From Candidatus Azophilus sp. (GTDB lineage Bacteria > Pseudomonadota > Gammaproteobacteria > Pseudomonadales > Azotimanducaceae), in NCBI GenBank assembly GCA_965221465.1, contig OZ244892.1:1577536-1641535 (forward strand): a DNA stretch of 64,000 nt, read 5' to 3'. The position numbers were made by a program, and so were the translations under genes. Below the pieces are notes generated by a model. It made no database searches and had not been told where the DNA came from. It saw only the letters and a program-made list of their open reading frames with translations. Position 1 is the first letter of the stretch, and the number at the start of each line of letters is the position of its first letter. Below, piece after piece: positions 4 through 64,000 of the stretch.

Positions 4-1161
4 ATGGCCAGGCACAACCTGGCGCACGTTCGAGCCGGAACCATCGAAAAGACGGAAGCGATCCACAGGGAACCCGCCCGGCACTATTTCGACGAGGAGC
101 GCTGGCACCTGGAGATGGACCGGGTATTCAAGCGCCTGCCGCTCATGCTGGCGATGACGGCAGAGCTTCCGAACCCCGGCGACTACAAGGCCATGGACGC
201 CGTGGATACGCCGGTGCTCATCGCCCGCGGCCAGGACGGCGAGGTGCGGGCCTTCGTCAACATGTGCCGGCACCGGGGCTCTCAGATCATGCCCCCCGGC
301 ACGGGCAGCGCCAGGCGATTCACCTGCCCTTACCACGCCTGGTCCTACGACCAGACCGGCGCCCTGATCGGGGTATTCTCCGAGCAGGACTTCGGCGCCG
401 TGGACCGGTCCTGCTACAGCCTCGTCGAGTTGCCCTCGGCAGAGCGCGCCGGGCTCATCTGGGTGCATCTGAACCCGGGTGCCAAGCTGGACATCGATGA
501 CTTTCTATCCGGATACGACGCCGTTCTGGAGCATTTCGACTTCAAGAACTGGCACCACTTCGAAAGCCGCGTGATTCCGGGGCCCAACTGGAAGATCGCT
601 TACGACGGCTATCTCGACCTGTATCACCTGCCGATCCTGCACAAGGACTCGTTCGGCCCCGACATGCACAACCAGGCGCTCTATTACGCCTGGGGGCCCC
701 ACCAGCGGGTCAGCTCGCCCGACCCGTCACTCGCCGACTACGACGACATCGAAGGCGTCGACGAAGCGCATCTGATGTCGGGTGTATGGACCGTCTTTCC
801 CCACGTCTCCATCGCCGGCTTCGACGGCGGCGGGCGTGGCGTGATGATCTCGCAACTCTTCCCCGGCGAGACGCCGCTGCAATCCTACACGGTGCAGAAC
901 TACCTGATGGAGAACGAACCCGCCGACGAGCAAACCAGAACCGAGGCTCACGAACAGTTCAAGTTTCTCGAATACGTGGTCAAGGATGAAGACTACGCCA
1001 CCGGCCTGCGCCAGCAGAGGGCGCTCCGGACCGGCAACATGCCCCACGTCCTGTTCGGTCGCAACGAGGGCGGCGTGCAGCGATTCCACGGGTGGGTGGA
1101 CAGGCTGGTCGAAACGGACGACCGGGCCTTGCCGTCGCTATTCCGAAACGGCAGGGCCTGA
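4..1161 (+). CDS. Rieske [2Fe-2S] ring-hydroxylating oxygenase, alpha (catalytic) subunit
   Basis: 385-aa ORF. Rieske motif CRH-x17-CPYH (NMCRHRGS...FTCPYHAW). The C-terminal part resembles a catalytic domain. No adjacent beta subunit. Confidence 0.85.
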   Translation: MARHNLAHVRAGTIEKTEAIHREPARHYFDEERWHLEMDRVFKRLPLMLAMTAELPNPGDYKAMDAVDTPVLIARGQDGEVRAFVNMCRHRGSQIMPPGTGSARRFTCPYHAWSYDQTGALIGVFSEQDFGAVDRSCYSLVELPSAERAGLIWVHLNPGAKLDIDDFLSGYDAVLEHFDFKNWHHFESRVIPGPNWKIAYDGYLDLYHLPILHKDSFGPDMHNQALYYAWGPHQRVSSPDPSLADYDDIEGVDEAHLMSGVWTVFPHVSIAGFDGGGRGVMISQLFPGETPLQSYTVQNYLMENEPADEQTRTEAHEQFKFLEYVVKDEDYATGLRQQRALRTGNMPHVLFGRNEGGVQRFHGWVDRLVETDDRALPSLFRNGRA

Positions 1162-1189
1162 CGGCGCGATGCATGTCATGGCCCTTTTT

Positions 1190-1676
1190 CATGGAACACT
1201 TTTTCCAAGTGATTGATTCTATTGAATTCGCTAACCAAGGAACCCTTACATTCGATTCGGCTCCGAGAACCGGTAAGCGTCCAGATCCGTTTTGGAGATT
1301 TCACCCCCACGGTATTACGGTATGATCGTTCGTAGTTTCCTGGCTCCTGGGCTTGTCATTCGGGCATTCATGCCCACATATCCATTCAGGATGTCGGGAA
1401 ACGACGGTGGCGACCAAACTCGTGCACGGCCCCTGAGGCCTGGCTTTAAACGGTCCGCCACCGCACCCGCCGCCGGTCGCGACCGGCGGCGGGTGGACCC
1501 ATCCCATGGGCTTACCGAGGTCGAGCTTGACCGGGGTCCACGTGGGGAGATCAAACAGAAAAGCCCCAACAGCGCCATTCGGCGAGCCGGATACACCCAC
1601 CGCACACCGGCTCTCTCCCAGCGTATGACTGGTGTTTCTTGCGCGTCTTCGTCCCGGCGCGCCGGGTTCGGAACTC
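1190..1676 (-). repeat. Structured intergenic repeat element, copy A (expanded, about 490 nt, carries an extra interior of about 290 nt)
   Basis: Read on the minus strand: head GAGTTCCGAACCCGGCGCGCCGGGACGAAGACGCGCAAGAAACACC, GGGAGAG, a 5' arm, a large interior, a partial 3' arm (CCGGTTCTC), then tail AATCAATCACTTGGAAAAAGTGTTCCATG. Aligns with copies B and C at both ends. Confidence 0.8.
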
Positions 1677-1678
1677 GC

Positions 1679-3577
1679 GTGAGAAAGAGATTGTTTGTCG
1701 GGATGCTCGCGACACTCGGCGCGCTCTGTGGACTGGGGGGTTGTGCACCGTCGGGTGAGCGGACGGACGGGGAATCGCCCGGCACGCAGGTCGCTGTCGG
1801 GCAGCAAGCCCCGGCCATCGACGCGAATCCGAACCGCAGCGCCTGGTTTGGTGACCTGCACGTGCACTCGCTGCATTCGCTGGATGCCTTCATATTCGGG
1901 ACGCGGGCGACCCCTGACGACGCCTACCGGTATGCCAGGGGTGAACCGCTCGCCCACCCCGCCGGCTTCGAGATGCAGCTTTCGGCGCCCCTCGACTTCC
2001 AGGCCGTCACCGACCACGCCTCCTACCTGGGCATCATGGCGGCCATGGCGGACCCCGCTTCGAACGTGGGGGCTCATCCGCTGGCAATGGCCCTGCGCGA
2101 CGCCAAAAACCCCGACGAACGGCTCTCGTATTTCCTGGATGTCGTGCCGGCCATGCTCGGTTCCGACGAAGGCGCGGAATTGCTGGACCTCGACATCGTC
2201 CGGGATGCATGGCGGGACATCGTCGAAACCGCCGAACGGCACAACGAGCCCGGTGTGTTCACCACCTTTATCGGTTACGAGTACACGGCATCGGGCCCCG
2301 AAGGCGCCAACCTGCACCGCAACGTGATCTTCCGCGGCAGCAACGCCCCCGACCTGCCCTTCGGCGCCGTCGATTCCCTCAATCCCGAGGACCTGTGGGA
2401 CTGGATGGACGGCTTGCGGGCGCTCGGCATCGAGTCGCTGGCCATCCCTCACAACCCCAACCGGTCCAATGGCATGATGTTCGAACCCAACGACCGGGCG
2501 GGCAGGCCCATCGACGCCATCTACGCCAATCAGCGCATGCGCAACGAACCGCTGGTGGAGGTCACCCAGGTCAAGGGAACCTCCGATACCCATCCCCTGC
2601 TCTCGCCCAACGACGAATGGGCCGATTTCGGCATTTCCGATCAGCGGGCCAGGTCGCCGTTGCCCAGCCGAGCCGCCGGGAGCTATGTGCGCAACGCCTG
2701 GCTGCGGGGCCTGGCCATCGAGAACGACCGGGGATCGAATCCGTTTCGGTTCGGCCTGATCGGTTCGTCCGATACCCACAACGCGGGCGGCTCGTTCCGC
2801 GAAGAGAATTACGTCGGCAAGCTCGGGTTGCTGGATGCCACGCCGCAACAGCGCGGTTCGGTGCTGCCGGCCGACCCGGCTCGGGCCGTACGCGACCCCG
2901 CCCCGACAGACGGCCGCACCTGGGGCGCTTCAGGCCTTGCCGGAGCCTGGGCGGAGTCGAACACCCGCGACGCCATCTTCGCTGCGTTTCGCCGCAAGGA
3001 GACCTTCGCCACCAGCGGGCCTCGCATCCGGGTCCGGTTTTTCGCCGGAACCGGTATCGACGAATCGCTGCTGGACGCGGACGACCCGATTGCCGCCGCC
3101 TATGAATCCGGCGTGCCGATGGGCGCCGACCTGCCGCCGGGCGACGGTTCCGCGCCCGGGTTTTTCGTCTGGGCGATGCGTGACCCCGAGACCGTGCCGC
3201 TGCAACGCCTGCAGGTCGTCAAGGGCTGGATCGAGGGCGATGAAACCAGGGAGCAGGTCTACGACGTTGCCTGCTCCGACGGCGGGCAGTTGGACATCGA
3301 CACCCACCGCTGTTCCGACAACGGCGCCACGGTCGACCTGTCCACCTGTAACGTCAGTAGAGAGACGGGCGCGGCCGAACTCGCCGCCGTCTGGAATGAC
3401 CCGGGCTTCCGACCCGGACAACGCGCCTTTTACTACGTTCGTGTTCTGGAGAATCCCAAGTGCCGCTGGTCTACCTGGGACGCAATCCGTGCGGGCGTCG
3501 CGCCCAATCCCGACATGCACGCCACCATCCAGGACCGGGCCTGGTCTTCACCGATCTGGACCGGGCCGGCACGATAA
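1679..3577 (+). CDS. DUF3604-family protein, predicted lipoprotein
   Basis: The ORF frame from 1292 is trimmed to GTG 1679, giving signal peptide VRKRLFVGMLATLGALCGLGGC (lipobox). HVHSLHSLD and DH metal-site-like motifs are typical of DUF3604. ATG 1703 is an alternative start. Confidence 0.75.
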   Translation: MRKRLFVGMLATLGALCGLGGCAPSGERTDGESPGTQVAVGQQAPAIDANPNRSAWFGDLHVHSLHSLDAFIFGTRATPDDAYRYARGEPLAHPAGFEMQLSAPLDFQAVTDHASYLGIMAAMADPASNVGAHPLAMALRDAKNPDERLSYFLDVVPAMLGSDEGAELLDLDIVRDAWRDIVETAERHNEPGVFTTFIGYEYTASGPEGANLHRNVIFRGSNAPDLPFGAVDSLNPEDLWDWMDGLRALGIESLAIPHNPNRSNGMMFEPNDRAGRPIDAIYANQRMRNEPLVEVTQVKGTSDTHPLLSPNDEWADFGISDQRARSPLPSRAAGSYVRNAWLRGLAIENDRGSNPFRFGLIGSSDTHNAGGSFREENYVGKLGLLDATPQQRGSVLPADPARAVRDPAPTDGRTWGASGLAGAWAESNTRDAIFAAFRRKETFATSGPRIRVRFFAGTGIDESLLDADDPIAAAYESGVPMGADLPPGDGSAPGFFVWAMRDPETVPLQRLQVVKGWIEGDETREQVYDVACSDGGQLDIDTHRCSDNGATVDLSTCNVSRETGAAELAAVWNDPGFRPGQRAFYYVRVLENPKCRWSTWDAIRAGVAPNPDMHATIQDRAWSSPIWTGPAR

Positions 3578-5794: not shown

Positions 5795-6020
5795 CGCAAG
5801 TCGAGTGTGAACCGCACCGCCCCGTCACGCCCTGCGGGCGAACGCCGAACGCGTTGTTTCCGGACGTCGAACGCGATCGTCAATCGCGTCGACGGGCTCG
5901 TTTTCCATCGTCATCTGCATGGTTTTCATGTTGCACGCCATCGGTGTGGGCTGAGCCATGGCCATGCTAACCCAAATCCCGTCGATGCTCTGGCCCTGGC
6001 AAGCATCCGTCACCGGCTTT

Positions 6021-6059
6021 CGCCTCGACGCCCTCGCGGCGAAAGTTGGTGAGGGATGC
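6021..6059 (+). repeat. REP-like element (CTCGCGRCGAAAGTTGGTGA variant)
   Basis: CGCCTCGACGCCCTCGCGGCGAAAGTTGGTGAGGGATGC. The same unit occurs at 13601, 63652, and (reversed) 20301 and 32015. Confidence 0.75.
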
Positions 6060-9357: not shown

Positions 9358-11649
9358 CTAATCGCCGGCCACCTGCGGTATCTCGCAGGCAGTCTCCAGC
9401 AACTCCGGATACTCCTCGCGGTAGGACGACTCGCAGAATGCAATGACCCCATTGGCCCGGTCGACGACATAGGCGCGGATATCCTGCGCACCCCGGGCAT
9501 CGAGCACATGGCTGAACTCCGGCATGCCCATCTGCGTATAGGCGCCGTCGAGGACGATGGCGTTCCAGATGTCGTGGGTTGCTTCACTCGCGTACAGCAG
9601 GCTGCGTATCGTCCCCGAGGTCCCCACGCCCGGGCCATGGCAGGACGCACAGTAGACGTGAAAGGCGTCCTGGCCGCGCCGTACCTGTTCCTGCGTGTAG
9701 TCCATTGGCGGTGGCGTGGGCACGCCGATGTAGGTCACGTCGGGCTGCGGCAACTCGACATTCCCGCCCAGCTTGTAGGTCAGAATCCGCCCCTCGCTCA
9801 ACACGTTGTCCCGGTGGCGGGGTGCGCCGGTCGCGACGCCGTAGGCTCCGCCCCAACCGGCAACGACACTGATGTACTGTTCCCCGTCGACGCTGTAGCT
9901 CACGGGCGCTGCAATGATGCCGACATGGGTCGGGCTTTCCCAAAGGAGTTCTCCCGAATCCGCGGCATAGGCGGCAAACCGGCCGTCTGCCCGGCCTTGA
10001 AAGACCAGATTGCCGGCCGTGGACAAGAGGCCGCCGTTCCACGCGGTGGCGTGCTGGACTCGCCACACTTCCTGCTGGCTCACCGGGTCCCAGGCCGCGA
10101 GGAAGCCGCGGATGTCCTGCAGGTTGGCGATATTCTCCTCCGCGGTGGGCGGCGGTGCGGAGAGGCGGAAGTCGACCCCGGTGTTCCAGGCCTCGGGGGC
10201 GTACTTGAAGGCGTTGTCCTGGGCATAGTCGAAACGCATGTCGAGAGCGGGGATATAGACCAGGCCGGTCCCCGGATGGTAGGTCATGGGATGCCAGTTG
10301 TGCCCGCCCAGCGGGCCGGGCCGAACGCGCTTTGTTTCGTTGGCATAGTGTGCCTCGGGGTTTTCCACCGGGCGCCCGGTTTCCGGGTCCACATGGGTCG
10401 CCCAGGTCACGGGCACGTAGGCTTCCGCCGAGATGAACTCGCCGTTGGTGCGGTCGATAACGTAGAAGAAGCCGTTCTTGGGCGCCTGCATGATCACCTG
10501 GCGCATGCGGCCGGCAATCTCGATGTCGGCCAGGATCATGTGCTGTACGGCGGTGTAGTCCCAGGTGTCGCCGGGGGTCGTCTGATAGTGCCATGCCCGC
10601 CGGCCCGTATCGGGGTCGATGGCTACGATGGAGGACAGGTACAAGTTGTCCCCGCCGCCCGGGCTGCGAATGTACCGGTTCCAGGGCGAGCCGTTGCCGG
10701 TACCGATATACAGCAGGTTCAGGTCGGGATCGTAAGCCATGGAGTCCCAGACCGTGCCGCCGCCGCCGACTTCCCACCACCTGCCGCCCTGCCAGGTGGC
10801 GGCCGCCAGTTCCATGTCTTCGGTCTCGAAACCGTCGGCGGGATTGCCCGGCACGGTATGGAAACGCCACAATCGCTCGCCGGTAGCAGCATCGTAGGCG
10901 GTGATGTAGCCGCGAACGCCGTATTCCGCGCCGCCGTTGCCGATGATGACCTTGTCGCTGACGATCCGGGGCGCGCCGGTGATGGTGTATGCCCGGTCGC
11001 GCGGCGTGGTTTCCACATCCCAGACGGGTTCGCCGGTGCCCGCATCCAGTGCAACCAGGCGTCCGTCGAGGGTGCCGACGTAGATCCTGCCCTTCCAGGC
11101 TGCCACACCGCGGTTGACCACATCGCAGCAGGCGTATCGCCCCCAGGCGCGCGGCACCTGCGGGTCGTATTCCCACAGCAACTCACCGGTTTTCGCATCG
11201 TGTGCCCAGACCACCGACCAGGTGCCGGTGCTGAACATCACGCCGTCGACGACGATGGGGGTCGCCTCGAGCCCGCGTTTCGTGCCGGTGTCCCAGTACC
11301 AGGCGAGGCCCAGTTCGCCCACCGTTTCCCGATTGATCGCATCGAGGGGGCTGTGCCGCTGCTCGTCGTAGGTACGCCCGGTGCTGAGCCAGTTGCCCGG
11401 TTCGCCCTTCGCGATTCGCGCACCGTCGATGTCGGCCGTTGCCTGTTGAATCTCCGTGACGCGAGACTGCGGGGAATCGACCGGGGCTTCCGACAATGGG
11501 GACACGGCCTCACCCCCCTGGCCCGACGGTTCGGAACACCCGTTCAGCAACGCCAGCAGCCCGACAACAGCCAGGTTGCGCTCGAAGGCCCGCCGGCAAA
11601 CAAATGGAAGATCACTATCGGAACCAGGCGCCGCAGTCGTAACCATCAT
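9358..11649 (-). CDS. PQQ-dependent quinohemoprotein dehydrogenase (alcohol dehydrogenase type, C-terminal cytochrome c domain), predicted lipoprotein
   Basis: 763 aa. Vicinal-Cys motif YACCDVVNRG, beta-propeller W-repeats, C-terminal CASCHG heme site. Signal RRAFERNLAVVGLLALLNGC. The only usable start is ATGATG at 11649, inside the tail of repeat copy B. Confidence 0.9.
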   Translation of the reverse strand: MMVTTAAPGSDSDLPFVCRRAFERNLAVVGLLALLNGCSEPSGQGGEAVSPLSEAPVDSPQSRVTEIQQATADIDGARIAKGEPGNWLSTGRTYDEQRHSPLDAINRETVGELGLAWYWDTGTKRGLEATPIVVDGVMFSTGTWSVVWAHDAKTGELLWEYDPQVPRAWGRYACCDVVNRGVAAWKGRIYVGTLDGRLVALDAGTGEPVWDVETTPRDRAYTITGAPRIVSDKVIIGNGGAEYGVRGYITAYDAATGERLWRFHTVPGNPADGFETEDMELAAATWQGGRWWEVGGGGTVWDSMAYDPDLNLLYIGTGNGSPWNRYIRSPGGGDNLYLSSIVAIDPDTGRRAWHYQTTPGDTWDYTAVQHMILADIEIAGRMRQVIMQAPKNGFFYVIDRTNGEFISAEAYVPVTWATHVDPETGRPVENPEAHYANETKRVRPGPLGGHNWHPMTYHPGTGLVYIPALDMRFDYAQDNAFKYAPEAWNTGVDFRLSAPPPTAEENIANLQDIRGFLAAWDPVSQQEVWRVQHATAWNGGLLSTAGNLVFQGRADGRFAAYAADSGELLWESPTHVGIIAAPVSYSVDGEQYISVVAGWGGAYGVATGAPRHRDNVLSEGRILTYKLGGNVELPQPDVTYIGVPTPPPMDYTQEQVRRGQDAFHVYCASCHGPGVGTSGTIRSLLYASEATHDIWNAIVLDGAYTQMGMPEFSHVLDARGAQDIRAYVVDRANGVIAFCESSYREEYPELLETACEIPQVAGD

Positions 11650-11890
11650 GAAAATACCTTCCAAGTGATTGATTTCATTGAATTCGCGAACCAAGGAAAC
11701 CTTACCTTCGATCCGGCACCGAGAACCGGCATGCGGTACGTGCATGCGGCGCACCAGGCGGCGGCGCTTACGGCTACGATAGGCGCAAGAGCGAGCCTTA
11801 ACAGCGCCGCATACACGCACCGCACACCGGTTCTCTCCCAGCGGGCCTTTGTTGCTTTCACGTCCGCGGTCCCGCGCGCCGGGGTGAAAT
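11647..11890 (-). repeat. Structured intergenic repeat element, copy B (full length, intra-operonic)
   Basis: Aligns end to end with copy C. The 32-nt arms 11835-11804 and 11752-11721 pair at all positions. Tail ...AATCAATCACTTGGAAGGTATTTTCATG. Confidence 0.9.
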
Positions 11891-11939
11891 CTTTCATCGA
11901 ATACCCCCTCCTGTGCTGTTCGATGAATGACGTGGAATC

Positions 11940-12356
11940 TCAGTCGGCCGGCTCGAAGAGCGGCAGGCAGAGGTCGTCGTGTTCTTCCCAGCGGACGCGC
12001 ACACGCATGCCGATTTTCACGTCCTCCTGCGGGTCCTCCACCCCGACGATGTTGGAGACGAGCCTCGGGCCTTCGTCCAGGTCGACCCAGGCCACTGCGT
12101 AAGGCACCAGCGTGCGGAAGAACGGGTGATAGCTCTGGCGCACGACGCTGTAGGTGTAGACGGTGCCGAACCCGGCAGATCGTTTCCAGGCGAGGTCGTT
12201 GCCCAGGCAGGCGGTACAGTGCCCCCGCGGATAGAAGACCACATTGCCGCAGTCGCGGCATTGCTGGTAGGTGAGCGCCTTGTTCCGGGTTGCGACCCAG
12301 AAGGCTCGGGAATCGGCCTCGTCGAGGCTCGGCAGCGGGCGCCCTGGCGTGTTCAT
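11940..12356 (-). CDS. DUF35 OB-fold / zinc-ribbon protein (thiolase partner)
   Basis: 138 aa. Zn-ribbon CRDCG...CTAC followed by an OB-fold. GGGGAGGGA upstream. Starts 2 nt after the thiolase-like stop. Confidence 0.8.
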   Translation of the reverse strand: MNTPGRPLPSLDEADSRAFWVATRNKALTYQQCRDCGNVVFYPRGHCTACLGNDLAWKRSAGFGTVYTYSVVRQSYHPFFRTLVPYAVAWVDLDEGPRLVSNIVGVEDPQEDVKIGMRVRVRWEEHDDLCLPLFEPAD

Positions 12357-12358
12357 GC

Positions 12359-13567
12359 TCAATCCCTCCCCAGCACGACGGTTCCGGCGCAATGCCGGCT
12401 GCCGAGCATGCCGCCGTTGCCGTGCGCCACGGCAAGCGCTGCGCCCTCTACCTGGGAACAGGACTCGCCCCGCAATTGCCGCGCCGCCTCGATCAGCAGA
12501 AAGATGCCGCGCATGCCCGGGTGATTCGACGAAAGCCCGCCGCCATCGGTATTCAGCGCCGGACCGTCCGCCGGCCGGTCGAAGCGCAATCGGCCGCCCT
12601 CGATCCAGCGGCCGCCCTCGCCCTTGGGACAAAACCCCAGGTCTTCCAGGATCGTCAACACCGTGATGCTGAAGGAGTCGTAGATCATGGCCACATCGAT
12701 CTCCCGAGGAGTCACGCCGGCCTCGCCGAAGGCGTCGGGGCCCGACTGCACGGCGGCGCTGGCGGTGATGTCACCGCCGTTTTCCGGGTAGCGGGTCGCT
12801 TCCCCGGTGCCGAGCAGCCAGACCGGCGGCTTCCGGCAGTTGCTCGCCACCTCGGGAGCGGCGATTACCACCGCACCGCCGCCGTCGGAAATCATGCAGC
12901 AATCCAGGAGGTGCAGCGGGTCGGCGATCATTCGGGAGTTGACCACGTCCTCGATGCCGGTCTCGCGAATGTCGAGAAACTCCAGGTCTTTCATGGCCTG
13001 GACCGCTTGCGGATTGCGCATGGCGTGATAGCGGGTCGCCACCGGAATTTCGGCGAGCTGTTCATGGGTAGTGCCGTAGTCGTGCATGTGACGCTGCGCC
13101 ACCATGGCGTAGTTGGCGACCAGGGTCATGCCGGCGAATCGATCCATGTTGTCCGCGGGATGCCCGATCGCGCCGCCGCGCCCGCCAACACCGATGGCGT
13201 TGGCGTTGCTGTGCGCCGTGGAGCCATACGTCAGAAGCCCAACGTTGGCCTTGCCGGCGGCAATGTCCCGTTTTGCGTGGGCCGCGTGAAATTCGTAGGA
13301 GGCGCCGCCGACGTTCGTGGTGTCGATGACCCGGGGCCTGATGCCGAAATGCTCGGCGATGCTGAGGCCGGCCATGCCGCCGCCTTCACCGGCATCGTAG
13401 ACGGCATCGATATCACCCCAGCCGAGGCCTGCGTCCTCGAGGGCCCGCGCAGCGCTTTCGGCCTTGATCTGCAACGGACTGACGCTGCCCTCGACGTCCC
13501 GGGACGGGTATTCGTGAATGCCGACGATTGCGGCATCCCTTGCCTGATCCCTTGCCTGCGCGGTCAA
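12359..13567 (-). CDS. Thiolase-like protein (SCP-x / lipid-transfer type)
   Basis: N-terminal DAAIVGIHEY and thiolase-fold-like sequence throughout. The start is uncertain: TTG 13567 is preferred, and GTG 13603 lies inside a REP unit. Confidence 0.75.
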   Translation of the reverse strand: MTAQARDQARDAAIVGIHEYPSRDVEGSVSPLQIKAESAARALEDAGLGWGDIDAVYDAGEGGGMAGLSIAEHFGIRPRVIDTTNVGGASYEFHAAHAKRDIAAGKANVGLLTYGSTAHSNANAIGVGGRGGAIGHPADNMDRFAGMTLVANYAMVAQRHMHDYGTTHEQLAEIPVATRYHAMRNPQAVQAMKDLEFLDIRETGIEDVVNSRMIADPLHLLDCCMISDGGGAVVIAAPEVASNCRKPPVWLLGTGEATRYPENGGDITASAAVQSGPDAFGEAGVTPREIDVAMIYDSFSITVLTILEDLGFCPKGEGGRWIEGGRLRFDRPADGPALNTDGGGLSSNHPGMRGIFLLIEAARQLRGESCSQVEGAALAVAHGNGGMLGSRHCAGTVVLGRD

Positions 13568-13600
13568 GCGGACGCCCCTGAACGGCAGGGCGCAGGACGG

Positions 13601-13636
13601 CACCTCGACGGCCTCGCGACGAAAGTTGGTGACGGG
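13601..13636 (+). repeat. REP-like element
   Basis: CACCTCGACGGCCTCGCGACGAAAGTTGGTGACGGG, same family as 6021. Confidence 0.75.
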
Positions 13637-13653
13637 TCGGGGCTGGAGATTTT

Positions 13654-13872
13654 CATGGTACAGATTTCCGAGTAATCGACTTTATTCGATGTGTTGACCT
13701 GGGGAACCATTCCGTCGAACCGGTCGCCGAAAGCCGGAGCAGGATACGTGCATACGGCGCGCCGAGCGATCCCTGAATTGCAAGAAACCTGTGGGACCGG
13801 ACACTAACATACAACCGGATTCGAGCGGAACGCCCATGCAGGCGCTGGACGCACCGTAAAGCTCCGGTATGA
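13654..13872 (-). repeat. Structured intergenic repeat element, copy D (diverged, head missing)
   Basis: Tail CGATTACTCGGAAATCTGTACCATG and 3' arm GCGCCGTATGCACGTATCCTGCTCCGG align to B and C. A degenerate complementary 5' arm is present (ACCGGAGC...GGTGCGT...GCGCC). Confidence 0.65.
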
Positions 13873-16784: not shown

Positions 16785-16871
16785 CGCGCGCAGTCTATCA
16801 GAATCGGTAGCCGGATACTCCGACGACAGGGCGCCCTGGCGGCCGTCGCGAGCACGGCCGCGCTTGCGCGA

Positions 16872-16910
16872 GTGCATCGGCGTCCACAGCAGCGAGATGG
16901 TGATGGATGC
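16872..16910 (+). repeat. REP-like element (GCATCGGCGTCC variant, diverged)
   Basis: GTGCATCGGCGTCCACAGCAGCGAGATGGTGATGGATGC, compared with 37961 GTGCATCGGCGTCCGCAGCAGGAAGCTGGTGACGGATGC. Confidence 0.65.
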
Positions 16911-16913
16911 GGA

Positions 16914-18263: not shown

Positions 18264-18316
18264 TGCCCGTTCCCTCGTCCCGTTGCACCCAGCGCCGACG
18301 TGCAGATGCTACAGGA

Positions 18317-18567
18317 AAGTTGCCACCCCGGCGCGCCGGGACGAGGACGCGCAAGGAACACCTGATGACCCTTGGGAGAGAGCAGGTGTGCGGTGCGTGT
18401 ATCCGGCGCTGTTGAGGCTTGTGCTTGCGCCCATCTTCGCGGTAAGCACCTCCGCCTGGTGCGCCGGATGCACGTACCGTATACCTGCTCTCGGTGCCGG
18501 ATCGAAGGCCATGTTTGCCACGCTAACGAATTCAATAAAATCAATCACTTGGAAAGAGCGTTCCATG
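18317..18567 (+). repeat. Structured intergenic repeat element, copy C (full length)
   Basis: Head AAGTTGCCACCCCGGCGCGCCGGGACGAGGACGCGCAAGGAACACC. Arms 18378-18409 and 18461-18492 pair at 32 of 32 positions. Tail AATCAATCACTTGGAAAGAGCGTTCCATG. Confidence 0.9.
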
Positions 18568-18630
18568 AAAGTTCCCAACCCGGCGCGCCGGGACGAGGAC
18601 GGGCAGACAACAGCGGACAACGGGGGACAG
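18568..18630 (+). repeat. Structured repeat element, head-only module C' (tandem, directly after the ATG of copy C)
   Basis: AAAGTTCCCAACCCGGCGCGCCGGGACGAGGACGGGCAGACAAC..., the same head as the other copies. Confidence 0.8.
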
Positions 18631-18714
18631 CAAGAGTGCAATTCGACTCGAATACTCGGCTGCCGGATTGATATCATCTCCGGCACGACGATACCGTGGC
18701 CGGAAGAGCACGCC

Positions 18715-20280
18715 GTGATCGATTACACGCAGCCCTATCCGTCATCCCGCTCCCCGGTTTGCGCCGCCAACCTGGTGGCCAGCTCTCAACCCCTGGCCGT
18801 ACAGGCTGGCATTCGAGCCCTGCGCCGGGGCGGCAATGCCGTCGATGCCGCCCTCGCCACCGCCATCGCGTTGACCGTCGTCGAACCCAACAACAACGGC
18901 GTCGGCAGCGATGCATTCGCCATCGTCTGGGACGGGGAGGCACTCACGGGGTTGAACGCCTCCGGACGGTCTCCGGCAGGCTGGACCCGCGATCGATTTG
19001 CCGACCGCGATGCCATGCCCCACCGGGGATGGGACGCCGTAACCGTACCCGGCGCGGTAAGTGCCTGGGTAGCCCTGTCCGAGCGATACGGCAAGCTGCC
19101 CTTCGAAGAACTGTTCGAGGATGCCATCGGCTATGCACAGGACGGCTTTCAGGTCGGCCCCAAGACCGCCTGGTATTGGCGATTCGCCGAGGAGATGTAC
19201 GGCGAATTCCAGGATTTTGCCGAGCATTTCCTGCCGGCGCCCCAGCCGGGCGACCTGTTCCGGCGCGCAGACCTGGCCGCCACGCTCATCGAAATCGCGC
19301 ATACCCGGGGCGAGTCGTTCTACAGGGGCCGACTGGCAGAGCGCATCGAAGCCGCCGCCGTTGCTGCCGGCGGCGCCATGCGAAAGGCAGACCTCGCGAG
19401 TCATCGCGCCGAGTGGGTCCGACCGCTGGCACAGGACTACCGGGACGTGACGCTGCACGAGATTCCACCGAACGGGCAGGGCCTCGCCGCACAGATCGCA
19501 CTCGGCATCCTGCAACACCTCGACATCGCGCCGCTCGACTCGTCGGACAGCGTGCACCGGGAACTCGAAGCCATGAAGATCGCCATCCGGGCGGCATTCG
19601 ACCACTTTGCCGACCCGGCACACATGCAAGTCGACCCGAAGGCACTGCTGGATGCGGCGTCGCTCGAGCGAATCGCGCACGGCATCGACGACCGGGCGGC
19701 TCCGCTGCCGCCGGTGGCACTGCCGACCGGTAGCGACACGGTCTACCTGGCCACCGCCGATGCCGACGGCATGATGGTGTCGATGATCCAGTCGAACTAC
19801 GAAGGGTTCGGCTCCGGCATCGTCGTGCCCGGAACCGGTATCGCCATGCAGAATCGGGGCCTGGGGTTCGTGCTCGACCCCGGTCATCCGAACGAGGTGG
19901 GGCCGAACAAGCGCCCGTACCACACCATCATCCCCGGGTTCGTGACCCGCGCCGGCGCACCGCTTCTGAGTTTCGGCGTCATGGGCGGCCACATGCAGCA
20001 CCAGGGCCACGTACAGATGGTGCGGCGCCTGTTCGACCACGACCAGAACCCCCAGGCCGCCAGCGATGCCCCGCGCTGGCACGTCTACCCGGATTTCAGC
20101 GTCGGCCTGGAAACGGGGTTCGATCCTGCCGTCGCTCGGAGCCTGGCCGACCGTGGCCACCGGGTCAGGCACGAACCGCTCGAACGCGTCTTCGGTGGCG
20201 CGCAACTGATTCTGAAAACGGATTGCGGCTACGTGGGGGGATCCGATCATCGCAAGGAAGGCATGGCCGCCGGCTTCTGA
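18715..20280 (+). CDS. Gamma-glutamyltransferase-family protein (no obvious signal peptide)
   Basis: GGT-family sequence (SQPLAVQAG, GSDTVYLATAD with the Thr nucleophile, GGHMQ). GTG 18715 is preceded by GGAAGAG. The in-frame ATG 18565 in the repeat tail is an alternative start. Confidence 0.8.
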   Translation: MIDYTQPYPSSRSPVCAANLVASSQPLAVQAGIRALRRGGNAVDAALATAIALTVVEPNNNGVGSDAFAIVWDGEALTGLNASGRSPAGWTRDRFADRDAMPHRGWDAVTVPGAVSAWVALSERYGKLPFEELFEDAIGYAQDGFQVGPKTAWYWRFAEEMYGEFQDFAEHFLPAPQPGDLFRRADLAATLIEIAHTRGESFYRGRLAERIEAAAVAAGGAMRKADLASHRAEWVRPLAQDYRDVTLHEIPPNGQGLAAQIALGILQHLDIAPLDSSDSVHRELEAMKIAIRAAFDHFADPAHMQVDPKALLDAASLERIAHGIDDRAAPLPPVALPTGSDTVYLATADADGMMVSMIQSNYEGFGSGIVVPGTGIAMQNRGLGFVLDPGHPNEVGPNKRPYHTIIPGFVTRAGAPLLSFGVMGGHMQHQGHVQMVRRLFDHDQNPQAASDAPRWHVYPDFSVGLETGFDPAVARSLADRGHRVRHEPLERVFGGAQLILKTDCGYVGGSDHRKEGMAAGF

Positions 20281-20300: not shown

Positions 20301-20373
20301 CGCCAACTTGCGTCGCGAGGACGTCGCGGCGCTTGCCCGAGGGCATCGGCGTCCGCAGCAGGAAGTTGGTGAC
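20301..20373. repeat. Inverted pair of REP-like elements (BIME-like)
   Basis: CGCCAACTTGCGTCGCGAGGACGTCGCGG (20301-20329) faces GCATCGGCGTCCGCAGCAGGAAGTTGGTGAC (20343-20373), head to head. Confidence 0.75.
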
Positions 20374-20454
20374 CGGTGCGCGTTAAATCCGATTGCCCGT
20401 TTTCCTGAACACGGGTAACGAGTTATCCTGATCAGACGACGCAAGGACGCAATC

Positions 20455-26577: not shown

Positions 26578-26618
26578 TGTACCACGGGTCCGACTTCTGC
26601 CCATACAGGCGACACTTC

Positions 26619-26765
26619 GAGTTTCGAACCCGGCGCGCCGGGACGACGACGCCCGGGAAACACCCGTCAACCGCTGGGAGAGAACCGGTGTGCGGTGCGT
26701 GTATACGGCTTGCCGAATGGCGCTTTCCGGGCTCGTGTTCAATAACTTGAAAACTCTTTTCACGC
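26619..26765 (+). repeat. Structured repeat element, copy E (head + 5' arm, internal deletion, degenerate tail)
   Basis: GAGTTTCGAACCCGGCGCGCCGGGACGACGACGCCCGGGAAACACC...GGGAGAGAACCGGTGTGCGGTGCGTGTATACGGC. It then shares GCCGAATGGCGCT with copy A. The 3' arm is absent. Tail-like GTTCAATAACTTGAAAAC. Confidence 0.75.
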
Positions 26766-26782
26766 GAAAGTTGCGCCATTGC

Positions 26783-27406
26783 ATGTGGTGCGGCATGGCT
26801 CTCGCGTTGGCGCTCACCAGCAGCCAGCCGGCGCTCGGTCACGGCGGGGTCGTTGCCGAAGAGGACCTCTGCCTGTTGAAGATGGGCTTCCTGCAGGCAC
26901 ACTTCACGCTGTTTCTGCCGGATTCCCACGGCTCCGAGGAGTTCTGCGAAGAGGTGCCCAGGGCCGGCAGGGCGCTGTTCGTCGTCGAATACCTGCACGA
27001 AATGATGAAAGAGATGCCGATCGAATTCCGTGTGGTACGAGACGAACAGGGTTTCGGCATCTTTGCGAATTGGGACGACGTGACCTCCATTCCCGACCTG
27101 GACGCGCAGACCGTGTTTCATCGGCCCCTGGCTGCCGAGCCCACCGGCTGGGTCGCCGTCAGCCACACCTTCGAGGAAACGGGAGGTTACATCGGCGTGG
27201 TGGTGGCGGAAAACCCCGCCAACGGCAAGATTTACAACTCCGTCTTCTATTTCGAGGTCGGTAACGCCGGTTACGGCTACATCCCCCTTTTCGTGGCCCT
27301 GATCGTCGTTGCACAACTCCTGTTCTTCGCGAGCACGGGATACCTGCAACGCTTCCTCCGTTGGCTGCGGAACCGGACCCGCAGCGGATATCACGCAAAC
27401 CGCTGA
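26783..27406 (+). CDS. Hypothetical exported / C-terminally membrane-anchored protein
   Basis: Signal-like MWCGMALALALTSSQPALG, C-terminal TM YIPLFVALIVVAQLLFFASTGYL. No family recognised. The start is uncertain (TTG 26747 or ATG 26795 are alternatives). Confidence 0.5.
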   Translation: MWCGMALALALTSSQPALGHGGVVAEEDLCLLKMGFLQAHFTLFLPDSHGSEEFCEEVPRAGRALFVVEYLHEMMKEMPIEFRVVRDEQGFGIFANWDDVTSIPDLDAQTVFHRPLAAEPTGWVAVSHTFEETGGYIGVVVAENPANGKIYNSVFYFEVGNAGYGYIPLFVALIVVAQLLFFASTGYLQRFLRWLRNRTRSGYHANR

Positions 27407-37920: not shown

Positions 37921-37960
37921 TAGGGGCGCGGCTGTATCCGAAACAGCGGTTTACCCCGCA

Positions 37961-37999
37961 GTGCATCGGCGTCCGCAGCAGGAAGCTGGTGACGGATGC
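37961..37999 (+). repeat. REP-like element (GCATCGGCGTCC variant)
   Basis: GTGCATCGGCGTCCGCAGCAGGAAGCTGGTGACGGATGC, between convergent genes. Confidence 0.75.
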
Positions 38000-38016
38000 G
38001 GGCTGGATAGGCATTT

Positions 38017-50244: not shown

Positions 50245-52014
50245 CTAACTCTCTTCGCCTTCTTCTTTGCTGGCTTTACTGTCTTCTTTTTTGCTGTCTT
50301 CTTTTTTCTTCTTGCGCTTGTCATCCCCGCCATCGCTCTGGCGGCCGGCCATCTGCGCCTTGATCAGGTCACCGAGCGTACTGGAGCCGGCGCGGGAGCC
50401 TTCCTGTCGCCGGTGTTCCTTGACCGCCATGCGCTCTTCGTCGAGTTGTTTGGCCTTGATGGAGAGCCCGATCACCCGGTTCTTGCGATCGATGCTGATG
50501 ATCTTCACCTCGATGTCCTGGCCTTCCGACAACTCCTTGCGCGTGTCTTCCACCCGGTCGAAGCCGATCTCGGAGGCCTTCAGCACGCCGATGACATCGT
50601 CTGCGAGTTGCACCTCGGCCACCTTCGGTTCCAGCGCCGTCACCACCCCCTTGACGATGGAACCGCGCTCGTTGACGGCCACGTAATCGGTGAACGCATC
50701 CTGGTCGAGCTGCTTGATGCCGAGCGAAATCCGCTCCCGGGCCGGGTCGATGGAGAGGATGACCGCCTCGATCTCCTCGCCCTTGCTGTAACGCCGCACG
50801 GCCGTCTCTCCCTGCTCTTTCCAGGATACGTCGGAGAGGTGCACCAGCCCGTCGATATCGCCCTCGAGCCCGATGAACATGCCGAAATCGGTGATCGACT
50901 TGATCGTTCCGGTAACGCGCTCGTTTTTCTTGTGATTGACCGCGAATTCTTCCCACGGATTCGGCCGGCACTGCTTGATGCCAAGGGAAATCCGCCGCCG
51001 GTCCTCGTCGATGTCGAGCACCATCACTTCCACCTGATCGCCTGCGGTAACGACCTTCGAGGGGTGGATGTTCTTGTTGGTCCAGTCCATCTCGGAGACG
51101 TGGACGAGACCTTCCACGCCCTCCTCGATTTCGGCGAAACAGCCGTAGTCGGTGAGATTGGTCACCGTCGACATCACCCGGGAGCCTTCCGGGTAGCGGC
51201 GGGTCAATTCCACCCAGGGATCGTCGCCGAGCTGTTTCATGCCCAGGCTCACCCGGTTCTTTTCGCGGTCGAACTTGAGTATTCGGACCTCGACCTCGTC
51301 GCCGACATTGACCATCTCGCTGGGGTGGCGGATACGCTTCCACGCCATGTCGGTAATGTGCAGCAGCCCGTCCACGCCACCGAGGTCGACGAATGCGCCG
51401 TAGTCGGTGAGGTTCTTGACGATGCCCTGGAGCGTCTGCCCTTCTTCCAGTGAGGCGAGCAGCGCCTCGCGCTCTTCGCTGTTTTCCTGTTCGAGCACGG
51501 CGCGTCGGGAGACCACGACGTTGTTGCGTTTCCGGTCGAGCTTGATGACCTTGAATTCGAGGGGCCTGCCCTCGAGATGCGCTGTTTCGCGCAACGGCCT
51601 GATGTCCACCAGGGAACCCGGCAGAAAGGTGCGGATGTCGCTGATGTCGACGGTGAAGCCGCCCTTGACCTTGCCGTTGATGATGCCCTTGACCACTTCG
51701 TTGTCGGAAAAGGCTTCTTCGAGCATCTGCCAGGATTCGGCTCGGCGCGCCTTCTCGCGAGACAACCGGGTCTCGCCGCTGCCGTCGTCGACGACTTCCA
51801 TCACCACCTTGACCCGGTCGCCGATCGCCAGGGTGAACTCCCCGGCCTCGTTCAGAAACTGGCTCTTGGGGATGCTCCCCTCGGATTTGAGGCCGGCGTG
51901 AACGAGCACCCGCTCGTTGTCCATGTCGACTACCGTCCCGGTGACGACGGCGCCGGGTTCCATTTCTATGGTTTCAAGGCTCTCCTCGAACAGTTCCGCA
52001 AAACTCTCGCTCAT
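50245..52014 (-). CDS. rpsA: 30S ribosomal protein S1 (with a Lys/Glu-rich C-terminal tail)
   Basis: 589 aa. Six S1 domains, N-terminus [13 protein letters not shown]. Confidence 0.95.
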
Positions 52015-61601: not shown

Positions 61602-61668
61602 CCCGCCTATCGCAACAAGCCTCTTGTCAGTTTGACGGAAGCCCTCTGATTTCGCTCAATTTCCTTGC

Positions 61669-61733
61669 GAGTCCCGAACCCGGCGCGCCGGGACGACGAC
61701 GCGCAAGGAACACCTGACAACCGCTGGGAGAGG
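61669..61733 (+). repeat. Structured repeat element, head-only module F
   Basis: GAGTCCCGAACCCGGCGCGCCGGGACGACGACGCGCAAGGAACACCTGACAACCGCTGGGAGAG, 68 nt after the ubiG stop. Confidence 0.8.
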
Positions 61734-61748
61734 GGCGTGGATCGTTGT

Positions 61749-63525: not shown

Positions 63526-63701
63526 ATCTCACCAACTTCCTGCTGCGGCCGCCGATGCACTCGCCCTGCGCGGCCGTGCTCCCTCCTGCCGATTTGACAT
63601 ACTGTCAAGTATGCCTGCATCGTCCTCCGGTCCGCGCGACCGCGCAGGACGGCGCCTCGACACCCTCGCGACGAAAGTTGGCGAGATTTCCGGGTTAAAC
63701 C
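63512..63701. repeat. Inverted pair of extended REP-like units (about 50 nt arms) flanking a roughly 90-nt spacer
   Basis: Left arm GGTTTAACCCGCATATCTCACCAACTTCCTGCTGCGGCCGCCGATGCAC. Right arm, reverse complement: GGTTTAACCCGGAAATCTCGCCAACTTTCGTCGCGAGGGTGTCGAGGCGCC. Confidence 0.75.
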
Positions 63702-63800
63702 GTCGAGCGTGCCCTCGAGCAAGCACCAGGCGGCCGCTTGAGTCAATCGTGAATCGAAGTCTCGTTCGCCTGACCTGCAGTTGGCGAGTTGTCCGATCTT

Positions 63801-63840
63801 CCCCGGGCTTCCTCGTCCCGGCGCGCCGGGTTCGAAACTC
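63801..63840 (-). repeat. Structured repeat element, head-only module G
   Basis: Minus strand GAGTTTCGAACCCGGCGCGCCGGGACGAGGAAGCCCGGGG, starting 4 nt after the stop of the partial minus-strand CDS. Confidence 0.75.
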
Positions 63841-63843
63841 GCA

Positions 63844-64000
63844 TCAGAATCGCTTCAGCAACTCGTCGACCACCGTCCCCATGCCGAATCGCACCGGGTC
63901 CGAGGCGGGCAGATTGAGCCGCGCAGCCGTCTCGTCCACCAGGGTCCGGGCCGCGCTGTCGCTCAGTTGTTGCGTGTTCAGGGCGACGCCGGCACAGCGG
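63844..64000 (-). CDS. Hypothetical protein, C-terminal fragment (5' end beyond the window)
   Basis: Open minus-strand frame from the window edge to TGA (63846-63844). C-terminus ...LPASDPVRFGMGTVVDELLKRF. Only 52 codons are visible, so this is weak. Confidence 0.35.
   Translation of the reverse strand, partial: RCAGVALNTQQLSDSAARTLVDETAARLNLPASDPVRFGMGTVVDELLKRF

Follow-up and report, generated by a model that had tools for sequence, protein, structure and literature searches.

A structured repeat at the start codon of a PQQ-dependent dehydrogenase gene and its family in uncultured Pseudomonadales

The dehydrogenase operon and its initiation signals

We analyzed a 64-kb window of a host genome (contig OZ244892.1; positions are those of the window), in which a minus-strand operon carries a 250-nt repeat, here termed copy B, between a DUF35/ChsH2-like gene and a gene for a pyrroloquinoline quinone (PQQ)-dependent quinohemoprotein dehydrogenase. 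Read along this strand, the DUF35 stop codon is followed by AGGAGGGGG, ATG 11897, the repeat and TCATGATG (Table 1). The product of the DUF35/ChsH2-like gene matches the Pfam domains OB_ChsH2_C and zf-ChsH2 and has orthologues of ~137 aa, while the dehydrogenase matches PQQ and Cytochrome_CBB3 (E 1e-77). An original prediction, made from the sequence of this locus, had proposed that the repeat donates the start codon of the dehydrogenase and is itself spanned by an 83-codon open reading frame (ORF83) whose stop codon overlaps that start. Its coordinates all hold on the minus strand, including the overlap of the TGA with the dehydrogenase ATG, and a public annotation contains the identical two coding sequences, namely the 763-aa dehydrogenase from ATG 11649 and the 83-aa ORF.

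Within the dehydrogenase frame, two ATGs, both at the edge of the repeat, are the only canonical start codons ahead of the hydrophobic core of the lipoprotein signal. The following one is a TTG at codon 33, inside the LLALL core, and only CTG occurs before it, in agreement with the earlier statement that no other ATG, GTG or TTG precedes the core. Upstream, the frame stays open across the whole of copy B, with the nearest in-frame ATG lying within the 3′ arm of the hairpin. An SD-like GGAAGG (SD, Shine–Dalgarno; 11662-11657) followed by TATTTTC stands in the repeat tail 7 nt before ATG 11649. The idea of a start donated by the repeat tail thus survives: ATG 11649/11646 is the only workable start, and the tail ATG is also the predicted gene start at other loci.

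We compared this region with orthologous operons lacking the insertion, as the original prediction had suggested. The comparative loci (L-numbers) are mostly contigs of metagenome-assembled genomes (MAGs). The gene order CoA-transferase, thiolase, DUF35, PQQ dehydrogenase is common to the element-free loci L002 and L080, both of which display a native SD and start upstream of the position of copy B. In L080, CCGAAGGGGGATTCG ATGAGAG TTTTTCTACAG lies 29 nt past the DUF35 stop (SD also given as GGGGGATTCG); L002 reads CCGAAGGGGGATTTG ATGAAAG CTTCC (SD also given as GGGGGATTTG), and a further orthologous locus, L085, reads AGAGGGCGAATAG ATGAAAG CTGTTACACCG. In the window, CAGGAGGGGGTATTCG-ATGAAAG (also given as GGGGGTATTCG-ATGAAAG) is followed directly by the head of copy B. 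Most of the dehydrogenase orthologues begin with MK[AV] or MRV, i.e., with ATGAAAG or ATGCGAG, which is the heptamer of the element family. Because the orthologous operons carry like sequence without an element, AGGAGGGGG with ATG 11897 represents the dehydrogenase gene's own ancestral ribosome-binding site and initiation codon, and copy B sits on its start heptamer ATGAAAG. Thus, the strong SD and ATG 11897, which had been ascribed to the repeat, are instead the native initiation region of the dehydrogenase, severed by the insertion.

On the other side of copy B, GTTACGACT appears to carry on the native codons: ATGATGG is followed by TTACGACT, and the codons there are comparable to the GTT ACA CCG that follows ATG AAA GCT in L085. 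Deletion of copy B and one heptamer in silico yields an in-frame ATG AAA GTT ACG ACT. The window dehydrogenase has 37 residues before the lipobox cysteine, compared to 16–20 in orthologues that are 85–87% identical. The original prediction had held that orthologues starting elsewhere would refute a donated start; they do start elsewhere, but the donated start is not overturned, since we attribute the difference in N-terminal length to the insertion of copy B and not to a miscalled start.

More than one insertion has affected the dehydrogenase start region in the clade (L001, L084 and L078/L079). In L001, two tandem elements separate the DUF35 stop from an intact 5′ untranslated region with its own SD, and in L084, a tail remnant (TTCTGTTCC) abuts ATGCGAGTAGTT, which encodes MRVVALILG. 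The nearest relatives of the window gene, L078 and L079 (87% identity), feature a degenerate element-like spacer ending in ...GAGAACC ATGGTTGGTACTACG, after which the N-terminus MVGTT... resembles the MMVTT... of the window. As a separate observation, the 5′ end of the dehydrogenase gene in L078 is doubled (MVGTTIR and MIPPTLGV).

Table 1. Features of the copy B locus, repeat copies of the window and fragments of a second repeat family (window positions unless a locus is named)
Feature	Position	Strand	Details
DUF35/ChsH2-like gene	11940-12632	-	maximal ORF; stop TGA 11942-11940; upstream neighbor of copy B in the operon
AGGAGGGGG Shine–Dalgarno	11904-11912	-	within the 42-nt spacer after the DUF35 stop; now upstream of ORF83
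5′ heptamer ATGAAAG of copy B	11891-11897	-	ATG 11897-11895 plus 4 nt; left copy of the bounding direct repeat
Head palindrome of copy B, CCCCGGCGCGCGGG	11871-11884	-	
Long hairpin of copy B	11721-11835	-	arms of 32 nt (11835-11804, 11752-11721) enclosing a 51-nt loop region
Tail of copy B	11650-11720	-	GGTGCCGGATCGAAGG, then AT-rich GAATTCAATGAAATCAATCACTTGGAAGGTATTTTC; homologous tails in copies A and C
3′ heptamer ATGATGG of copy B	11643-11649	-	right copy of the bounding repeat; ATG 11649-11647, second ATG 11646-11644
ORF83 (MKDFTPARGT...SITWKVFS)	11646-11897	-	stop TGA 11648-11646, overlapping ATG 11649
PQQ-dependent quinohemoprotein dehydrogenase gene	9358-11649	-	763 aa; lipoprotein signal ...LLALLNGC (lipobox LLNGC)
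Copy A	1186-1680	-	head, 5′ arm, ~300 nt of foreign interior, partial 3′ arm, tail, ATGAAAA
Copy C	18313-18571	+	full length; 3′ heptamer ATGAAAG 18565-18571
Copy D	18565-18625	+	head only, in direct tandem with copy C
Copy E	26615-26768	+	head, 5′ arm, degenerate tail
Copy F	61665-61735	+	head only
Copy G	63790-63845	-	head only; stop of the upstream gene and ATG overlap (TGATG)
Copy H	13650-13765	-	3′ arm, tail, ATGAAAA; found by eye and by a weak blastn match
Inverted-repeat family, one end	13590-13632, 63642-63684, 6010-6052		
Inverted-repeat family, other end	16857-16911, 20326-20380, 37946-38000		
Inverted-repeat family, complete copies	L082 905-1247, 2130-2306		one nested in a type-2 element, another after the LptC stop

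Architecture and distribution of the repeat family

Copies B and C align over 240 nt at 80% identity (E 2e-59). A head profile built from related loci marked seven copies (A–G) within the window, and an eighth (H), comprising only the tail side, was recognized by eye. As the original prediction had noted, the copies are truncated at different points, and their tails differ by a 1-nt indel, with the 5′-to-3′ heptamer distance being 248 nt in copy B and 252 nt in copy C. Copy A lies antisense between two plus-strand genes. Copy H is placed upstream of a thiolase-like gene in the same operon as copy B, which therefore received two insertions; a fragment of an unrelated inverted-repeat family directly follows copy H.

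Two further genes of the window are in phase with a repeat. The ATG of copy D is in frame, without an intervening stop, with a gamma-glutamyltranspeptidase-like gene (18565-20280, plus strand), and the entire remnant of copy E is in frame with a downstream gene for a secreted protein with a signal peptide (26615-27400, plus strand). The start of the former gene is ambiguous for the same reason as that of the dehydrogenase at copy B. We also observed a GTG ~50 codons past the copy D ATG (VIDYTQPYPSSRSPV), which may be the real start of that gene, and a TTG in the degenerate tail of copy E (AACTTGAAAAC) that would give MKTLFTRKLRHCMWCGMALALALTSSQPALG. Further, the GTG start of a plus-strand gene for a DUF3604-like lipoprotein (MRKRLFVGMLATLGALCGLGGC, window 1674-1700) falls inside the reverse complement of the 5′ heptamer of copy A (CTCGCGTGAGAAAG), so that an element edge abuts a gene start in the antisense orientation too.

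A scan for the head motif, with one genome per species, recovered at least 74 loci. Among the matches listed, 50 of 74 belong to the family and come from seven related Pseudomonadales or Gammaproteobacteria MAGs, one of them Ca. Azophilus (Ca. Azotimanducaceae); the remaining 24 are chance matches to the GC-rich palindrome, without the rest of the head. The LptC protein of the 4.77-Mb contig to which the window belongs is 76% identical to that of one family-carrying MAG, and the window organism thus seems to be a relative of these MAGs. Of the 50 family loci among the matches listed, about 15 are at contig ends, as expected of a repeat that breaks short-read assemblies. In a metagenome scan with the tail of the window sub-family, a single low-GC contig was retrieved, in which a 24-mer is present and the element absent: the exact 24-mer TTCAATGAAATCAATCACTTGGAA of the copy B tail is intergenic there (L086 5613-5636, Ga0136611_10001017) and, by a rough size estimate, is borderline for chance.

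The best conserved block of the family spans the tail/head junction (...AATCAAT.GGTTGA...TT.GTTCC ATGCGAG TCGG[GC]AAC CCGGCGCGCCGGG ACGAGGACGCGCAAGGAACA). The head palindrome (consensus CCCGGCGCGCCGGG; a 5-bp GC stem with a 4-nt loop) is near-invariant in the ~50 family loci among the matches listed and forms a GC hairpin 8–9 nt from the 5′ heptamer, with no hairpin near the 3′ end. The same head and tail enclose differing interiors of like layout: type 1, to which the window copies belong, measures 248–256 nt, type 2 measures 243 nt, short forms have 129–139 nt, and in longer forms, the hairpin contains further small repeats. Nested insertions as well as arrays in tandem were seen, and ATG[CA][AG]AG borders each complete element or array. 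Across 31 terminal 3′ junctions, the information is high through the tail GTTCC and ATG..AG (1.3–1.8 bits at five of the seven heptamer positions) and ~0.1 bit at the base immediately past the heptamer; at the 5′ junctions, conservation starts at, or slightly before, the ATG. The 3′ ends were set by hand, since an nhmmer tail profile proved too insensitive, missing even the tail of copy B. When the first 40 nt were compared with the reverse complement of the last 40 nt, no terminal inverted repeats were detected, the scores of copy C and a type-2 copy being at the level of shuffles and that of copy B being marginal solely via a palindromic CATG.

Two further recurrent features were seen in family members. 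One is a GC-rich repeat of ~85 nt (GGTCGCCACCGGTCGGGCGCAGCCCGAGCCGAAGCACCGCTTCGGCAGGTGGCGACGCCCCGCAACTGGTTGCGGGGCC) that recurs within the long hairpin in elements of types 1 and 2 (L001 ~530-620, L048, L077, L054 in inverted orientation and L082 ~1297-1380). The other is an element head broken at the same point (after GACGCGCAA) in two MAGs (L075 ~1940-1993 and L036 ~41-94, minus strand); beyond the broken head in L075, we noticed by eye a coding sequence resembling P4-type tyrosine integrases, and the repeat head may act as an attachment site for genomic islands.

The predicted fold of copy B has an energy of −128.6 kcal/mol (z = −5.4 vs shuffles), compared to −107.7 kcal/mol for the opposite strand, and the arms of its long hairpin are also found as a self inverted match. 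RNAalifold, applied to an alignment of ten diverse type-1 copies, predicted 44 pairs, 17 of which show double compensatory changes among these copies of shared ancestry, in line with the helix compensation proposed originally; the long hairpin is kept in all ten. One-sided changes yielded G-U at nine different pair positions, as against a single one with A-C. As G-U far outnumbers A-C, the hairpin fold appears to be selected on the strand as given, either as the sense RNA or as one DNA strand. The sense strand is more stable than the antisense by 7–20 kcal/mol in type-2 copies and in copies B and C of the window, although not in type-1 copies of other MAGs. The long hairpin's distal stem (CCGGCGC...GCGCCGG) and the head palindrome are similar.

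Searches for known signals in these structures returned little. Rfam yielded no match at the gathering threshold in the 64-kb window and, in E-value mode with copy B and a type-2 copy, only generic miRNA-precursor models far below threshold over the hairpin. No sigma-70 promoters were found in copies B and C by a consensus-only scan, which a weak or alternative-sigma promoter may escape, and a scan for intrinsic terminators found none inside copy B or copies C/D. A sigma-54 (−24/−12) reading of TTGGAAAGAGCGTTCC was rejected by eye, as it has TTCC for TTGC and other sub-families do not preserve the motif. A tRNA-like head was likewise rejected by eye for want of T-arm pairing. We also discarded a tyrosine-recombinase core with symmetric arms, since GTTCC...GGAAC flanks the heptamer in some sub-families and not in that of the window, and an integron attC site or gene cassette, since inspection of the head and tail consensus revealed no R″/R′ core sites (RYYYAAC ... 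GTTRRRY) and the copies are dispersed. Either ATTATGTTAAAT or ATTATGTCAAAT occurs in the tails of copies of type 2 and of those from Azophilus, such as L064 and L053/L068 (minus strand). The former holds an 11-mer, TTATGTTAAAT, which we take to be the XerD arm of the E. coli dif site; this reading was set aside because the 11-mer is absent from the window sub-family and no convincing XerC arm was found at the required 6-nt spacing.

We then examined 32 terminal tails, of which 28 were scored for their orientation relative to the next gene. Besides copy B, the tail ATG is the only plausible start at five loci, for genes encoding a TonB-dependent receptor (L005, MKAIATSIALIMITASC...), LptC (L016), an enoyl-CoA hydratase (L038, MKVETTTAGRITLVTINRP...), a membrane protein (L076) and a PQQ dehydrogenase with a tail remnant (L084). 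It is in frame with the next gene in a further three, coding for a PhoA-like protein (L021) and for the gamma-glutamyltranspeptidase-like and secreted proteins at copies D and E. About 22 other tail ATGs lead to short ORFs, and some of the genes downstream have their own SD (L001, L053, L058). An in-frame tail ATG in 8 of the 17 co-oriented copies is not significantly above one third, and the argument therefore rests on the loci without another start rather than on this ratio.

The LptC locus provides a pair of empty and filled sites. All LptC orthologues start with M[RQ][AV][NS]E at the same ATG. The empty site in L083 (ATGCGGGTTAACGAA) reads ...GGAACCCA ATGCGGG TTAACGAACAC, with kdsC and lptC overlapping and no element. 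The filled site in L016 has the kdsC stop in CTGATCA ATGCGAGTC, a type-2 and a type-1 element, and then GTTTC ATGCGAGTC AACGAACAG leading into the body of LptC. At the same genes in L082 (1448-1520), we observed a degenerate tandem duplicate of the first ~13 lptC codons downstream of the element array, with the functional start after it; the duplicate retains the old context of the kdsC end (CTGATAC ATGCGCGCTAACGTGAAC...).

Proposed origin of the displaced start and the alternatives

On balance, these observations favor, with some reservation, the view that copy B is one of a set of non-autonomous, orientation-specific repeats of ~130–490 nt, which landed on the start heptamer of the PQQ dehydrogenase gene and displaced its start to the repeat tail. 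The family occurs in a clade of uncultured Pseudomonadales, and its members comprise a heptamer, a head palindrome, a hairpin that changes in sequence but retains its pairing, an AT-rich tail with (G)TTCC at its end and a second heptamer. The native SD and ATG (11912-11895) would now open an accidental frame of 83 codons through the element, with the dehydrogenase predicted to start at the tail-side heptamer, at ATG 11649 or 11646. Ribosomes loaded at the native SD might translate through the element, melt the 32-bp hairpin, stop at the UGA and reinitiate at the overlapping AUG; GGAAGG and the AU-rich tail may, in addition or instead, receive ribosomes directly. The elements could have spread by site-specific insertion at ATGMRAG-like sites via a folded single strand, and the strand asymmetry together with the two CCGGCGC hairpins suggests, by analogy, a hairpin-binding recombinase of the HUH (IS200/IS605) kind as the mobilizer.

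Several points weigh against this explanation. Only ~8 of the 32 terminal tails feed directly into a gene, and 11 of the 28 scored tails face the 3′ end of a convergent gene, the other 17 having the same orientation as the next gene; the element thus often, but not exclusively, occupies start codons. As the copies share ancestry, the covariation and G-U counts do not represent independent events. No transposase is adjacent to any copy examined in the 64-kb window or the 8-kb comparative loci, and the mobilizing enzyme was not found there. The right-hand heptamer is either element-borne or duplicated from the target, and at copy B it reads ATGATGG, which is not a clean duplicate of ATGAAAG. Moreover, ~20 codons past copy B (AAPGSDSDLPFVCRRAFERN) have no counterpart in the orthologues, and the third-position GC, counted by eye, is low (~0.33) over dehydrogenase codons 3–17. 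Finally, the accessibility of the tail initiation region, predicted from base-pairing probabilities, does not exceed that of the native region.

Two alternatives would place the function in the RNA or peptide of the repeat itself. That the repeats are immobile, conserved cis-regulatory leader RNAs (riboswitches, attenuators or processing signals), with ORF83 as a leader peptide, would account for the strand-specific covariation of the hairpin, for the conserved AT-rich tail with its ATG and for the 17 of 28 terminal tails that are co-oriented and at most ~110 nt from the start of the next gene. We nevertheless regard it as improbable: 11 of the tails face convergent genes, copy A is antisense to both of its neighbors, the repeats form tandem arrays, are variably truncated and have other repeats nested in their hairpins, their presence differs among orthologous loci, the genes downstream are functionally unrelated, no Rfam family was matched at threshold, and the frame of the supposed leader peptide is not conserved. 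The structured-leader reading of the original prediction holds as regards a structured non-coding repeat, but it overlooked the native initiation region, and its leader ORF does not extend to the family. Still less credible, and very unlikely in our estimate, is that ORF83 is a real small protein translationally coupled to the dehydrogenase. It has a strong SD, an ATG, the ATGA overlap and a public gene call, and, as first noted, the same frame is open in copies A, C, E and F. However, its SD and ATG are inherited from the dehydrogenase, and both the dehydrogenase frame and a long opposite-strand ORF also remain open through copy B in this 64% GC DNA. The ratio of nonsynonymous to synonymous substitution rates between copies B and C in this frame is 0.73, Pfam gave no match, and ORF83 forms a singleton cluster at 90% identity among ~15 billion sequences. 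In type-2 copies, the frame of the head ATG always stops after 33 codons, with its TAA in the hairpin loop, and its stop lies at 189–243 nt in the type-1 copies of other MAGs. The ATGA overlap, which could have been taken as a family trait, occurs only in copy B; in copy C, the extra tail base brings the frame into phase with the tail ATG without overlapping it, and, given an open frame and a heptamer starting with ATGA, chance alone would produce an overlap in roughly a third of registers. By these comparisons, ORF83 is not a conserved protein, as the original prediction had argued, and is a by-product of the insertion.

Turning to the insertion itself, the dehydrogenase could have lost its proper start and be expressed poorly or not at all, with the annotated ATG merely the first available one. 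This would be consistent with the 37 residues before the cysteine, the low third-position GC of the first ~15 codons (by eye), and the fact that an internal ATG of the nearest relative, L078, has as its homologue in the window a GTG that is out of frame. We consider such a loss unlikely, because the 763-codon frame is intact, 85–87% identical to its orthologues and with all domains kept, and because L078 and L079 share the MV(G)TT N-terminus directly past an element-like spacer, implying that the arrangement persisted through a speciation; further, the overlap with a well-initiated upstream frame is of the −4 type, which the account in PMC6728339 presents as the canonical geometry of termination-reinitiation. 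That the elements are small, numerous and intergenic, with short direct repeats at their flanks, might also recall a classical miniature inverted-repeat transposable element, with terminal inverted repeats and a target-site duplication made by a DDE transposase. This origin is hard to credit, given that terminal inverted repeats are absent (shuffle-level scores in copy C and a type-2 copy), the flanking repeat is a fixed ATG[CA][AG]AG that does not vary with the site, the GC-rich head and AT-rich tail are strongly asymmetric, and the hairpin is internal.

Beyond the displaced start at copy B, a more far-reaching proposal, which we put forward only tentatively and think less likely to be right than wrong, is that the family is an undescribed element that homes as a folded single strand to ATGMRAG start heptamers and is tolerated via a tail-borne replacement initiation region. 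If so, its insertion would rewire translation, with the native SD driving a disposable frame across the hairpin and the gene restarting at the element edge; this would place a structured, possibly RNase- or translation-sensitive switch ahead of many genes.

Relation to known repeats and a second family

Several known repeats share part of this layout. Correia (CREE/NEMIS) and ERIC elements are similarly transcribed intergenic repeats that form long mRNA hairpins and can alter the expression of flanking genes. Unlike the copy B family, they have terminal inverted repeats, with the whole element forming the hairpin, and in Correia elements a TA duplication; neither is known to be associated with start codons. 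The palindromes derived from IS200/IS605 and the REP/REPIN-RAYT systems resemble the copy B family in orientation specificity, the lack of terminal inverted repeats and insertion beside a short specific sequence, and may share with it strand-specific folding and subterminal GC hairpins; their known targets are of 4–5 nt as against 7. As no TnpA or RAYT gene is adjacent to any examined copy and the tail end has no hairpin near the cleavage point, the likeness to IS200/IS605 is one of mechanistic analogy only. IS900 inserts between the ribosome-binding site and the ATG, whereas the copy B element lies after the ATG and 4 nt, with the heptamer repeated at both ends; moreover, IS900 is an autonomous 1.4-kb insertion sequence with a transposase, in contrast to the non-coding copy B family. 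Both have an insertion site set by the start codon and its context and a single orientation: as far as the account in PMC8141618 goes (with Doran 1997 cited there), IS900, of the IS110 family, targets translation-initiation signals, with CATGNNNNNNTCTCCTT as its target.

Closer parallels in initiation come from the Neisseria REP2 and Borrelia IR repeats, which, in the sections on them in a review, carry a promoter together with a site for ribosome binding and an ATG codon (Parkhill 2000; Morelle 2003; Dunn 1994, in Delihas 2011, PMC3184786). As described there, and like the copy B family, they are interspersed, lack terminal inverted repeats, possess internal stem-loops and stand immediately upstream of genes; the copy B family likewise appears to offer an RBS-like motif and an ATG at its 3′ edge to the downstream gene. 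Differences are that REP2 has a promoter, none having been detected in copies B and C by the consensus-only sigma-70 scan, that the two groups have no sequence similarity and belong to other host clades, and that the review's passages on REP2 (PMC3184786) report neither fixed heptamer bounds nor the splitting of a gene from its SD nor tandem modular arrays. The MIRU elements (Supply 1997; PMC3184786), according to the same source, are also small, lie in polycistronic operons with ORF ends overlapping their neighbors, and show empty and filled sites with short direct repeats suggestive of insertion. Unlike the copy B family, they are 40–100 bp in length, with imperfect terminal inverted repeats and tetranucleotide direct repeats (PMC3184786), and their overlapping-ORF layout is family-wide, whereas here it is confined to copy B. 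In light of these accounts (PMC3184786), the original view that it would be unusual for a repeat to carry a portable initiation region was overstated.

Repeats bearing a ribosome-binding sequence plus an ATG are thus already known, and the copy B family would be a variant of them. In a non-exhaustive literature search, none of REP2, Borrelia IR, MIRU and IS900 was described with its combination of features, and the apparently new element is the coincidence of a fixed heptamer boundary with the start, a head/tail frame that takes varied interiors, and a strand-specific covarying hairpin. Taken together, the fixed boundary, the hairpin and the swappable interiors point to an insertion mechanism undescribed for small bacterial repeats. 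Copy B also illustrates how a gene might survive an insertion right on its start codon, with the repeat supplying a new ATG and ribosome-loading region and the orphaned native signal still able to feed ribosomes by termination-reinitiation. For annotation, it means that gene starts beside such repeats are systematically ambiguous in these Pseudomonadales, and that spurious small coding sequences such as ORF83 enter public collections.

The fragment following copy H seems to come from another, unrelated family of repeats, one that possesses genuine terminal inverted repeats (GCCCGCATCCGTCACCAACTTTCGTCG ... CAGGAAGTTGGTGACGGATGCGGGC; Table 1). Elsewhere in the window (50710-51303), we found three direct repeats spaced exactly 261 nt apart, with 61–74% identity, which are probably repeated protein domains of ~87 aa encoded on the minus strand.

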